Source of the DNA: Eledone cirrhosa | Taxonomy: Eukaryota | Direction: 5' to 3' | Length of the DNA: 64,000 bases | NCBI GenBank assembly: GCA_964016885.1 | Contig: OZ024743.1 | Location: 158,782,001-158,846,000 of the forward strand | Notes under the pieces: model-generated | Seen by the model: the letters and a program-made list of their open reading frames with translations, nothing else | What the model was told of the DNA's origin: nothing | The model's database searches: none | Program-made: the position numbers and the translations under genes | Shown here: positions 39,796 through 64,000 of the stretch, piece by piece | Layout of the letters: each line of letters starts with the position of its first letter | Position numbering within the stretch: the stretch's first letter is position 1

Positions 39796-39944
39796 TATCT
39801 ATCTATCTATCTATCTATCTATCTATCTATCTATCTATCTATCTATCTATCTATCTATCTATCTATCTATCTATCTATCTATCTATCTATCTATCTATCT
39901 ATCTATCTATCTATCTATCCATCTATCTATCTATCTATCTATCT
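39796..39944. repeat. (TATC)n microsatellite founding the Tx1 array
   Basis: Pure repeat not preceded by a Tx1 3' end (no AATAAAGAAA upstream). Confidence 0.95.
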
Positions 39945-39947
39945 GCC

Positions 39948-42900
39948 TGACGCGTGGAACATCGCCGGTAAACTTTTTTGTTAATTTCTATGCAAAAAAC
40001 CGAACTAATTGTTTGAAAAGATTTAACATTTTGTAGATTAACCCCCCAAGCTGAATTGTCAGCTGGGTGGTAATCGCATTTTTCGCCCATTTAGGGGCGA
40101 AAATTTAATTAAAAAATTGTTTTAAAATATCAAATTTTGTCAACTATAAAACATGAATAACTCGAAAAGAACGCTAGAGAACGTCGACAGAGAAAAGAGA
40201 GGTAAAGAAGCAGTATTAATGTTATGTCTGCTTCTGCTACTATGGACGCCGCCATAGATACGACTGTCAACAAAGAGAAAAAAATATTATCACTTGAAGA
40301 TTGTACAATTTCTACCGTCGAAGCGGAGAAAAATAACAACAACACGCATGAAAACACAGGAATTAAACCTATTAACATACATACACATGAAAAAGACAAC
40401 ATCAACAACTCCATAGATACATCTACACATAAAGTTTCACTTCGTCAAGGAATAACAACGATATCAAAAACAACAACAACAGCAACACCACACACAAAAA
40501 AATGTCTTTCGCTGAAACAGTGAACAAAAAATCTTTTATAAATCTTCACATCTCCAATGCGAGAGATATACTCCAGCAAGGGAGAAAATTTAATTTGGGT
40601 GGGTTTAGAATTAACTCACCCCTCGAAATAAAAGAAGACAGATCGAAGGACAGCGACCTTCAGGACTGTATCCAATACAACGAGAAAGCCGATATTTGTT
40701 AGTCAAGGAGATATAGAAGCCAATTTGAAGGAAATTGTAGCAAATATTGACTTTCTCCAACGAGGAAAACAGTACGGAAGTGTTTCCTTACTGTTTAAAA
40801 GCGAGGTACTCGTCCCAAAACATTCATTGACAGCAATGGTGTCAAAAGCATTCCCCTTTTCCCTACATACATGGGAAAAAGGACAAATAAAAATAAAAAA
40901 TATACCACCAAACATTAATATCTGGTGGATCTTGGCTGGCTTCGTAGAGCCAGAGACTGATATGATTCTTTCGATACAAAAGTCTATTAGACAAAGGTGG
41001 GCGGGTACTGATTTGGAGATTCTGTTGCAAATGAGGCCGGAGAGAATCTCCAAAATACCCGAAAATGTCGTCATTGACGACAACAACAAAATAAACATTT
41101 CGGTAGAAGGGCGTAAATTTCATTGCTTTCGCTGTGGTAGCACAGCACACCTAAAAGCCTCATGTCCTTCACAAACACACCACAAAAACATCATTAAAAA
41201 AACACTATTACCAACACCAACACCAAAACAACCACCACCACCACAAGTACAACAACAGACGAAACGAGCAACCACACCAAAACAAACAGCCACTCAACCA
41301 ACAACAACAGAAAAAACAGAGACAACACCCCTGAAGAACACAGCCCCACCCCATCCCACTCCATCAAACACTACCACAAACACACACACCGAAACACCAC
41401 CACCACACAAATACACCTACCCCGCAATCCTGACGAGGATTATTCAAAGACGGATGAGGCTGCTTCTCCTTCTTTAAGTGAAGAAGAGGGAGAACCGCGG
41501 AAATCTAAAAAAACAAAAAAAGAGACACCAAAAAAACCCCCAAAACTCCAATCAGCAACACCAACACACAACCACAGACACAAACAACAACACAAACAAC
41601 ACCACAGTCAAACATCCCCTTACCAGCAAACCTAACACCAACACCACCCCAAACACAAGCACCCACCATACAAAGAAAACTCCCGGACGAACAACAAACT
41701 AAAACAACACAACAAAAACACAAACAACAATACGCATACATCAACACAAACAACAAGAGTTTGATGGAGGTTATCTCCCAAAACCCCAAGGTGGAGACGA
41801 AGGGCAAAACTTTCGTCAAAGCAGAATCGTCTCCACACCTTAAACTTATAAAGGTTTCTCTGGAGACCTAGAGTGACCTAAAAAATAAATTTCCACAGGA
41901 CGTGGCCAACCCCTGCCAGAAACCCATCAACCACGTCTGTTAAAATGTTTCCCCACCCCACCCAACACCCCATCCAACACCCAAATGGAGATTGAACAAC
42001 ACGATCTCCTGGAAACGAAAAGGCAAGTGCACCTTTCGTCCTTTTTCTCCAACTTTTCTTCACCAACATAGCTAGTTTACGAGTTGGAAGCGTGAATGTG
42101 CGTGGGCTAGGGATGCTCTGGAAACAGGGCCAACTTTTAAACGACGTTAGGTCACACAGTATGGCTGTGATAGCCATCACTGAGTCCAGGATCCACTACA
42201 GGCAGCAACTAACCCCCATCTTCGACGACTTTGTGATCTACGCATCTCTCCGTCAGCCAGGAGGTGGAGGTGGAATGGCTGTCATGTTTCGGAAGAACCT
42301 GGACGCCGAAGTACAGCAAGTACACTTGGACCCGAAGGGTAGACTGGTAGTCCTAGACGTGAACAGTATTGGAGGTGGACATTCAGACTGGTGGCCGTTT
42401 ATGCTCCGACCGGGAAATCGCAATAACGGCCAGACTTCTTTAAGCGTCTAGAGTATTTTCTGGGAACGTCTCGCTCCTTACTTATTTGGCGACTGGATTT
42501 CCCGACTGCCCCACAGTGGACGTGGGTAAACCGCAATGGGACATCTAGATCGTATTTAGATAGGTTCTTCATTAGAGAAAGGGACAAGGAGATGTTAAGC
42601 TGTCCACGAATGCACATGGTTGCCTATTCAGTTCACAAATTAGTCGTCTGCATAGTCAACCGTGACAGAACACATAAACAGGGACCCAGATACTGGAAGC
42701 TGAACGTGTCGTTGCCCGGCACGTAAAGCTTACAGTGAACGGATAAGTAGACTAGTCAAGCAACAGTTAACGGGAGCCATCGTCAACAATAGATGGTGGT
42801 ACTCTCTCAAGAAAGCAATTAGAGTAGAATCGATAGGGTATAGCAAAGAGTTAGCCTTAGAGAAAAACAAATTAGAAAGAGAACTAATAGCCAAGGTAGA

Positions 42901-43445
42901 GGATACACTTAGAAGTGGCATCGCGGCTAGAGTGTTAGCGTCGAGAACGGCATTGGACCAGTTCTTCGATGCGAAACACGAAGGCTGCGTGGTCAGAAGC
43001 AAAACACGTGCTCTAGGAAACGAAGGAGCGAAAGCTGTCAGCTAGGCCCGAGTGGCGGAGGGAAAATGTGGCAACTAGTCCACGATTCGGTCTTTCAAAC
43101 ACCAAAATGGACGCGTGCTACTTGACCCCAAGTAAATATGCGCGGCCTTTCAGCAGCACTTTGCACGACTGTTTGAGCAGAATGACGGTGAGCCGAACGG
43201 GGCAATGGACTTTAGTGCATACCTCGACGGCCTGCCGCGTCTCTCGAACACGGACGATTGTTATAATTGTTTGTTTTATATTTTTACACGACTGTATGTA
43301 AACTCCCCGGCATGTCTTTGTATTGTCTCCTTTACTTGTGCACCCTTGTGGCAAATAAAGAAATCTATCTATCTATCTATCTATCTATCTATCTATCTAT
43401 CTATCTATCTATCTATCTATCTATCTATCTATCTATCTATCTATC
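39948..43445 (+). mobile_element. Tx1-like LINE unit 1 (alpha), 5'-complete, RT deleted
   Basis: 5' TGACGCGTGGAACATCGCCGG; decayed ORF1 with CFRCGSTAHLKASC knuckle; APE (NVRGL..D.KGR..SYLDRF); jumps near 43255 to the 3'UTR; AATAAAGAAA-(TCTA)n. Confidence 0.93.
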
Positions 43446-62309: not shown

Positions 62310-63693
62310 TGGGCCGAGTGCAAACTATCCTTGAAAGGTCGAGCGGAGGTGGCGAACACTTTTATAGCGTCCGCTATCTACTACCGCTTGACCATCGTGC
62401 CTTTCCAGCCAAAACGCTCGCTAAAATGGAGCGCGTGCTCTTCCAATTCCTTTGGAGGAGGCGGGCTTCTTTGGTGAGAAGATCCATCTGTTGCCAACAC
62501 CCTTCCAACGGAGGGCTGGGGTTGCCGTGGCTGACGATGCGCTAACACGCGCTCAGGCTATGGCATCTCTACGTATTCCTCGCCGGACAACCGGTGTGGG
62601 CCCCGTTCGTGAGGCGAGCCTTCCCACGACTCGTCTCGCTGACCGAGCTGCAGTCCTGGGTCAAGCAAAGACCGAGAAAAATGGGCGACTGGCACATCTA
62701 ATGTGCTCAGGCGCTCACAGCCCTCTGGCAGGCGGGCCCGGCGATCAGTGAAGACTTCACTTCGTCTTTCTATAGAGGGTTGATCCGCAGCAAGTGCGAC
62801 GACGCGCTCGTTGAAACTCTAGGTGTAGAGGAAGACGAACTGGCCAGTCTGTTCGTTAGGACCCTCCGCCCGGGACCGATGGACAACTTCCAAAAGTCCC
62901 TGGCCTGGCAGTGCTACCGAGGAGCTCTACCAGTTCGAGACAAGCTCCAGAGACGCCCGGGCAGGGACCCTTCGAAAAAGATCTGTCCGAGGTGCGTGCG
63001 AGACGAAGAAACCGTCGCGCACGCATTCGTACACTGCCCGGGCGTTGCTAACCTGTGGGGCTATGTGGAACGACTACTGTCGTGGGTGGGACCAATCCGC
63101 TTGACCACCGAGTACATTGTCACGATCAAACCGCCCCCCCTTCAAAAACGAAGGAGAGGCGGTTTTCCTTTGTGTGATAGCTATGGCGAAAGAGGCTGTA
63201 TGGTGGACAAGGTTGAAAGGGCTGAGGTCAGACACCTTTCTCTCCGGCCAGCAACTGATTCTTCTTTTCAAATACCACTTTAGAAGAAGAATCAGGATGG
63301 AGAGAGAGGTGCTGTACCCCCAGAAAGTTTTATGAAAGGTGGGTGAAAGTGGCGAGAATGGCCCGAGTGAATGGGCCTTCTCTCTATATCAGCCTGTAGG
63401 CTGAGGAAAAGGAGGAGGATAGGAAAGGGGTACAAACTCTTCGTACTCCTGGAGATGAGGGTTGCACATTTTTTCGGGGGTATGTGTTTCCCATATGTAA
63501 TGTCACCCCCTATTGGGGGAAAATCAATTAACTTTTAAATTGTATTTGTGATAGTATTTTACACGTTTTTATTGTATGTAAACTTCCCCCTTTGAATTTG
63601 TCCCCTTCTTTTGTGCCGCTGTGGCTAATAAAGAAACATATCTATCTATCTATCTATCTATCTATCTATCTATCTATCTATCTATCTATCTAT
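62310..63693 (+). mobile_element. Tx1-like LINE unit 6 (beta), 5'-truncated, disrupted
   Basis: Starts at WAECKLSL (cf. 47943); TAG 63397-63399; AATAAAGAAACATA-(TCTA)n. Confidence 0.94.
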
Positions 63694-63846
63694 GGAAAAT
63701 CGACTAACTTTTAAATTCCATCTGTGATAACATTTTACACGTTTTTATTGTATGTAAACTTCCCCCTTTGTATTTGTCCCCTTCTTTTGTGCCCCTGTGG
63801 CTAATAAAGAAATATATCTATCTATCTATCTATTTATCTATCTATC
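63694..63846 (+). mobile_element. Tx1 beta 3'UTR-only stub (about 120 bp plus tail)
   Basis: Matches about 56258-56376; AATAAA 63803. Confidence 0.92.
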
Positions 63847-63990
63847 ACTTACATAGCGTCCGTCATCTAATACCGCTTGACAGTCGTGCCTTGTCCCCGC
63901 GAATACCTCACCAACTTCCACTGGAAGAAACAGGCTCCATCGGTGAGGAGATCCATCTGCTGTCAACACCCTTCTAACGGAGGGCTGGGC
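63847..63990 (+). mobile_element. Start of another 5'-truncated Tx1 unit at the window edge
   Basis: TYIASVI.YRLTVVPCPREYL...WKKQAPSVRRSICCQHPSNGGLG with a small deletion. Confidence 0.85.
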
Positions 63991-64000
63991 ACACGTGTCT

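Follow-up and report, generated by a model that had tools for sequence, protein, structure and literature searches.

How do related retrotransposons come to stand head to tail and on one strand, with a simple repeat between them? This question is raised by a 64,000-nucleotide stretch of the Eledone cirrhosa genome (contig OZ024743.1, positions 158,782,001 to 158,846,000; hereafter, the window), the right-hand part of which holds 10 head-to-tail units of long interspersed nuclear elements (LINEs), plus strand throughout, set in runs of (TATC)n. An initial annotation took these to be Tx1-like LINEs of a TATC/GATA-targeting lineage that regenerate their target by copying a repeat tail from their own RNA, and suggested that the resulting cluster is potentially a unistrand piRNA source, a type of locus marked by a long precursor transcript and dense piRNA from a single strand. 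Across the genome, we observe a constant target and phase, a target duplication, a common orientation and clustering. We consider it quite probable that the array is a stack of independent insertions of related Tx1-like families into (TATC)n, in fixed phase and orientation, which grows via duplications of about 15 bp.

Layout of the array

The consecutive plus-strand units reported initially (at least 10, four of them 5'-complete) are present in the sequence, and the array does begin in a plain repeat, (TATC)37 at 39796-39943. TATC runs start at 39796, 43366, 49280, 55152, 56379, 62220, 62292, 63639 and 63815, while no run of more than two units occurs on the GATA strand of the window. The 5'-complete units start at 39944, 43446, 49369 and 56485. 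The array had been described as 24 kb long and composed of three families; its existence stands, but in the neighboring assembly it continues beyond the window to ~71186, for a total of 12 units and 31.2 kb, and we count four families in the window and five in the whole array. Units 1 and 3 are assigned to the alpha family, units 2, 4, 8 and 9 to beta, unit 5 to gamma and the last unit in the window (from 63847) to a fourth family with 73-77% identity to the other three. Identity is 72-84% between families and 89-100% among copies of one family.

Most units abut the TATC tail of the preceding one, as had been claimed for every 5' end; the exception is the pair of stubs at 62244-62291, between which TATC is absent. 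Units end in AATAAA(A)GAAA plus 2 nt, without poly(A). No unit has both ORF (open reading frame) frames intact, and the sole unbroken ORF2, of 1151 codons, is that of gamma. The units differ in truncation point and diverge by 2-28%; with several families present, this agrees with the earlier view of repeated independent insertion rather than segmental duplication.

Target preference and clustering across the genome

A 16-nt pattern of the common 3' end, searched over the genome alongside a control pattern, gave 16,792 matches versus 7 for the control. NN-TATCTATC stands directly after 9,620 of the 16,792 3' ends (57%), the same 9,620 that continue into NNTATCTATC. For closer reading, we gathered 230 distinct 3' ends. 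They come from the window and its flanks, from 90 loci found by search and 20 loci that were extended, and from 70 among the first 100 matches to the pattern (the positional sample); L-numbers below are labels of sampled genomic loci. The phase of the 3' junction is constant, GAAA-NN and then TATCTAT, with TATCTAT at bases 1-7 after 91-99% of 213 ends and TC sites rare. Poly(A) is found at 0 of the 230 3' ends, in line with the initial description of units that end shortly after AATAAA without it.

Both boundaries were called in 174 TATC-family copies, 153 of them truncated. At least 8 TATC-periodic bases lie at the 5' junction of 113 of these 153 (27/45 in the positional sample alone), against a background of 0.25% of 4,838 windows, an enrichment of more than 200-fold; some of the misses are boundary errors or later insertions. 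Among full-length alpha copies, 40 of 218 5' ends were read. At least two in-phase TNTC-like units are present in 39 of the 40, another 3' end directly precedes 20 of them (by eye), and five are duplicates with common flanks. With 113/153 and 39/40 5' ends in a TATC context, the typical flank is TATC (60-74% of truncated 5' ends), the opposite of the mostly non-TATC flanks that the initial annotation had named as fatal to its reading. A TATC-targeting lineage of Tx1-like LINEs is borne out by the preference at both junctions; the gamma ORF2 combines apurinic/apyrimidinic endonuclease (APE), reverse transcriptase (RT) and zf-RVT domains.

The copies also cluster. Gaps of at most 8 kb account for 29 of 99 among the first 100 matches (3 expected), and the neighbors are on the same strand in 26 of these 29 versus 35 of 63 beyond 20 kb. 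The array architecture seen in the window recurs at dozens of unlinked loci.

These results bear on whether the array could be a segmental duplication, a misassembly or a passive pile-up of randomly inserted TATC-tailed elements. Short contigs do fail to bridge the junctions (61700-64000 yields unitigs of 60-78 nt that skip the repeats), and true duplicates exist elsewhere, such as L225-L229 with common flanks and six copies at L155 that are 99.5-99.9% alike. Yet one array holds five families with distinct truncation points, unlinked loci by the dozen have an equal architecture, and 5' junctions are enriched more than 200-fold, all of which makes such an origin very hard to credit. At L225-L229 (G000:C1:211.9-213.0 Mb), segmental duplication has multiplied a single beta-alpha tandem together with its flanks.

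Long TATC tracts are often element tails: 3,288 of 12,640 counted in one phase. In a sample of 30, for which the phase chosen favors tails, 22 abut an element and 8 are free, and TATC therefore also occurs without these LINEs. A dispersed repeat containing (TATC)n(TA)n (L041, L070, L159, L258, L268) is a recurrent target, of which some copies are occupied while others are still empty.

Target duplication at insertion sites

Within perfect repeats, a duplicated target and an added tail look alike. We defined a site as readable where a non-periodic anchor is legible on both sides of the copy, which holds for 19 of the 153 truncated copies. In 17 of the 19, the target duplication begins immediately after GAAA-NN and makes up the whole 3' tail; the remaining two, in degenerate repeat, can be read in more than one way. 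The duplication measures 9-27 bp, with one of 45 bp in near-perfect repeat, and has a median of 15. The NN dinucleotide varies by subfamily and lies outside the duplication, and is therefore element-encoded. Read by eye, new copies have landed both upstream of older ones (L048, L051 and L054, where the duplication covers the neighbor's first bases) and downstream (L039, L060, L202). The initial notion of self-growing clusters is supported. No empty allele was seen at L021.

The source of new target is another matter. In the model of the initial annotation, every insertion copies a UAUC run from the RNA, such that the element makes target from nothing; slippage of the RT might also lengthen the run. 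Spacers often exceed a duplication, reaching 37 units, and both the 3,288 tail tracts and the 22 of 30 sampled tracts that touch elements fit this model. Under looser criteria, the tails of L042 and L196 contain 2 and 4 bases with no counterpart in the 5' copy, which points to at least one UAUC unit in the RNA. Against this, no unit has been added at 17 of the 19 readable sites, copies in (TA)n or (TC)n (L070, L095, L025) lack a TATC tail, and the perfect tail in the positional sample has a median of only 9 nt. Five copies do combine a long tail with a non-TATC 5' flank; in all five, that flank consists of other repeats, and so these are probably not original junctions. We therefore do not retain the copied tail as the supply of target, and regard it as an improbable account.

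Several observations weigh against growth by duplication. The readable sites are only 19 of 153, with three in one locus, and perfect tracts hide added units. The array spacers sum to ~180 units (720 bp), versus ~180 bp from 12 duplications, an excess that requires a long founder tract or slippage. That 22 of 30 long TATC tracts abut elements is equally expected of a tail-making element, and 43% of the 16,792 3' ends lack two perfect TATC units, the sampled ones mostly having degenerate TATC, TA/TC repeats or sister families. Finally, the insertion mechanism is read from assembled sequence.

A sister family in a piggyBac-like element

In 15 of the 70 positional ends, NN is followed by ACTCT(A/G)TA in place of TATC. 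These ends belong to a sister family whose ORF2 is 83% identical to that of gamma. One pattern finds 333 such ends, and a genome search with a slightly narrower pattern gives 0 matches for a sister-family end followed by NNTA. Conversely, NNACTC follows 355 3' ends of any family, with the GTGGCA form of the sister family in 99 of the first 100 listed. The sister family inserts into a tandem repeat with a 72-bp unit. This repeat is internal to an element with TTAA flanks and inverted repeats at its ends, which from its anatomy appears to be non-autonomous and piggyBac-like. TCTAT at positions 3-7 is common to both targets.

All 34 sister copies read (15 positional and 19 further; 20 were hand-picked from pattern listings, one of which belonged to another family) are 5'-complete, with a single junction type 5-7 bp upstream of the 3' site within the 72-bp repeat, and all 34 carry a target-derived head. 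At L283, 25 nt of the repeat stand as a head in unique DNA. At L291, one 72-bp monomer with four local variants flanks both sides, a real duplication of a whole monomer that is not seen at most other sister loci. Hitchhiking inside the mobile DNA element was considered and rejected: host arms are 85.1% alike versus 98.4% for the LINEs (120 pairs, from the 16 of 29 loci at which an arm could be reached), and the insertions are therefore independent. In contigs C1 and C2, sister copies lie almost only near contig ends among the matches listed. A six-copy sister array (L155-L158, G000:C1:4.222-4.260 Mb), 99.5-99.9% alike and with two identical spacers, has probably expanded by unequal exchange, unlike the array in the window.

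In a careful tree, the sister family falls within the TATC families (support of 100/99 for the group that leaves out alpha), although a topology uniting the TATC families is not formally rejected (approximately unbiased test, p-AU 0.06). Comparing 4 sister with 7 TATC sequences, we find fixed endonuclease differences at 7 positions. At L187, L206, L238 (minus strand) and L036 (some 10 kb to the left of the window), there are related LINEs whose 3' end is similar but runs on into (ATT)n. Three of them were placed in the tree, and these fall outside the TATC group.

Proposed mechanism

The favored interpretation, stacking through target duplication, can be set out as a series of steps. The APE domain would place its nick in the GATA strand, at GATA^GATA or no more than 3 nt away, and a second cut would fall ~15 bp downstream, as predicted from established target-primed reverse transcription. 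With only 6-7 nt between the poly(A) signal and the end of the element, cleavage of the RNA would fall inside the TATC flank of the donor. Such an RNA, ending in a few UAUC units, would anneal to the nicked strand in a manner that excludes the poly(A), and the units would normally go uncopied; such pairing by a short UAUC end is a predicted and likely step, with two sites showing 2-4 tail bases that the 5' copy lacks. At the 5' junction, the in-phase TNTC head may aid annealing of the cDNA. Since ~15 bp of target are duplicated, each insertion likely leaves a usable site on both sides, from which the array would grow, and slippage would later lengthen the spacers. The polarity of the array follows from the strand asymmetry of TATC.

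Could the endonuclease alone fix target and phase, with an RNA that ends exactly at NN and pairs at neither end? Endonuclease swaps between TRAS1 and SART1 shift specificity (PMC1919474), and the sister family has its 7 fixed endonuclease differences, including G116W, one residue past a position aligned by eye with Tyr-98 of R1Bm. A transcript cut 6 nt past AAUAAA with poly(A) copied in 0 of 230 ends is nevertheless hard to explain without pairing, and both the in-phase heads of full-length alpha copies and the target-derived head constant in 34 of 34 sister copies point the same way. We accordingly give this alternative little weight.

A more tentative idea, which we hold as possible, is that target choice is partly inherited via the RNA: the 3' read-through flank and the 5' head would serve as pairing guides, and a copy in a new repeat would found a family faithful to it. 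If true, this would explain how targets passed from (ATT)n through (TATC)n to the 72-bp repeat while the endonuclease changed little, as well as the sister family's complete exclusion of TATC, its 34/34 full-length insertions and the occasional duplication of a whole monomer.

Coding content and clade membership

The gamma ORF2 has Pfam matches to Exo_endo_phos, RVT_1 and zf-RVT and no RNase H match. An alignment of 24 proteins, Xenopus Tx1 among them, shows N10, E39, D141, N143, D202, D226 and H227 to be invariant. In gamma and beta, ORF1 gives a weak zf-CCHC match (E 0.04, under the curated cut-off); a separate ORF1 with a CCHC zinc knuckle is a feature of the Tx1 clade. ORF2 scores 300 bits with Xenopus Tx1, versus 149 with human L1 ORF2p and 72 with R2; identity to Xenopus Tx1 ORF2 is 29%, and the closest named protein, from Argonauta hians, is 62% identical. 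A PDB search with the endonuclease alone returned chance matches only. RT placement comes from a quick tree made without animal L1s, with four rows left out as too short or unmatched. There, the lineage falls with Tx1 in an unresolved 48-row group (SH-aLRT, a branch support, of 95), apart from plant L1s; the vertebrate Tx1 proteins form a group with support that does not include it. BAC82605 and BAC82609 are presumably proteins of the Kibi/Koshi study.

The target preference (57% of 3' ends, 60-74% of truncated 5' ends) exceeds the target-specificity threshold of more than 20% of flanks applied to Tx1 elements (PMC4494074). Domains and targeting fit the Tx1 clade, of which the lineage is likely a member; by target, it is neither Kibi nor Koshi.

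Two 5' untranslated region (UTR) hairpins are common to the families (window 40040-40100, 43530-43600, 49465-49530 and 56585-56645), with some compensatory changes; both fold in six copies with weak covariation. A search for a 5' ribozyme in Rfam gave three matches, all under the gathering score. In all three families, the ORF1 stop codon overlaps a splice-donor-like GTAAGT/GTGAGT (window 45573, 51477, 58496). Splicing there was rejected, as no listed internal deletion in 42 alpha copies begins at this site.

Comparison with known systems

Among Tx1-type APE LINEs, Kibi, Koshi and crocodilian families likewise insert in microsatellites, namely (TC)n, (TTC)n and (TTCC)n/(TTTC)n (PMC4494074, PMC3812793). 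Here, the target is instead (TATC)n and is common to at least five families, and the lineage differs from vertebrate Tx1 in lying outside that group in the RT tree, at 29% identity to Xenopus Tx1 ORF2. The closest mechanistic parallel is Drosophila R1, in which tandems arise by insertion into a 14-bp duplication and the RNA often includes downstream target (Stage and Eickbush, PMC2718515). R1 serves as a mechanistic model only, the best named matches being Tx1 and L1; its clade and its target in 28S ribosomal DNA differ, and whereas R1 tandems were reported to grow only upstream, the arrays described here grow in both directions with families mixed. In melanogaster-type R1A, upstream target is found at the 5' end with a precise 9-bp deletion (PMC2718515). 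The fixed sister junction 5-7 bp upstream of the 3' site resembles this, whereas whole-monomer duplication does not.

Xenopus Tx1L and the crocodilian Tx1-Mar and SINEU-3 are further close systems. Tx1L targets the non-autonomous piggyBac element Tx1D, and tandems of SINEU-3 arise around a duplication (PMC4494074). The sister family similarly targets a TTAA-flanked, piggyBac-like element with terminal inverted repeats. Unlike Tx1L, this transposon-targeting family is nested among microsatellite families at 83% protein identity, which makes its target switch recent and probably independent of Tx1L. In tandems formed by double insertion of transposable elements, independent events at one site are recognized by tail-to-head and tail-to-internal junctions that differ in truncation (McGurk and Barbash 2018, PMC5932611); those are mostly dimers of one family, in contrast to the 12-unit, five-family stack described here. 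Octopus vulgaris has 13 recently active L1-Tx1 families, whose target is not stated in the part of the source covered (PMC13282606). In the literature, we found neither a TATC-targeting LINE nor targets of octopus Tx1; Repbase, Dfam, or the supplements or Figure 3 of PMC4494074 may record one.

Annotated features

The coordinates of the array are given in the table. Elsewhere in the window, positions 1-316, with L035, are the 3' end of another alpha-like full-length copy, which starts in (TATC)24 ~4.9 kb to the left of the window; inside it, a short piece of its own 3' end is repeated in inverted orientation. Other RT-bearing retroelement remnants, dissimilar in DNA to the array, lie at 10318-11808 (-), 25238-26674 (-) and 27142-29615 (+).

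Table 1. Features of the LINE array in the window, and loci of the sister family.
Feature	Position	Strand
(TATC)37 tract, left end of array	39796..39943	+
Unit 1, alpha, 5'-complete; internal deletions of 107 bp and ~2260 bp; frames broken	39944..43365	+
(TATC)20 spacer	43366..43445	+
Unit 2, beta, full length (5.8 kb); stops and frameshifts in both ORFs	43446..49279	+
(TATC)22 spacer	49280..49368	+
Unit 3, alpha, full length; 88.6% identity to unit 1; frames broken	49369..55151	+
(TATC)14 spacer	55152..55209	+
Unit 4, beta, 5'-truncated, 1169 bp; 97.8% identity to unit 2	55210..56378	+
(TATC)26 spacer, interrupted	56379..56484	+
Unit 5, gamma, full length	56485..62219	+
Gamma ORF1, two frames (56702-57211 and 57087-58499); CCHC zinc knuckle ~57675-57725 (weak Pfam match, E 0.04)	56702..58499	+
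Gamma ORF2, unbroken, 1151 codons; APE endonuclease, reverse transcriptase, zf-RVT	58500..61955	+
(TATC)6 spacer	62220..62243	+
Two 3'-end stubs (21 and 27 bp), both ending AATAAAGAAATA	62244..62291	+
Unit 8, beta, 5'-truncated, 1329 bp; 93% identity to units 2 and 4; preceded by (TATC)4	62310..63638	+
Unit 9, beta 3' UTR stub, 121 bp; preceded by (TATC)13	63694..63814	+
Unit 10 start, fourth family, 5'-truncated; runs to ~65100, then two further units ending ~71186	63847..64000	+
Sister-family loci	L147, L148, L155-L158, L161, L166, L171-L173, L199, L203, L277, L279-L296	

Significance

The feature is real and genome-wide: it is a new target for site-specific APE LINEs, while the array mechanism is already known. 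The TATC target, which we did not find in the literature, extends the range of such LINEs, and these elements touch most of the long TATC tracts sampled in a 3-Gb genome, with a bearing on microsatellite markers and repeat annotation. Families with 83-88% ORF2 identity have targets that exclude one another. How the specificity of an APE LINE changes, whether by the endonuclease or by RNA-target pairing, is thereby testable by simple swaps between natural family pairs. For targeted gene insertion, a family that seems to make only full-length insertions, and these at a defined multicopy site, is likewise of interest.

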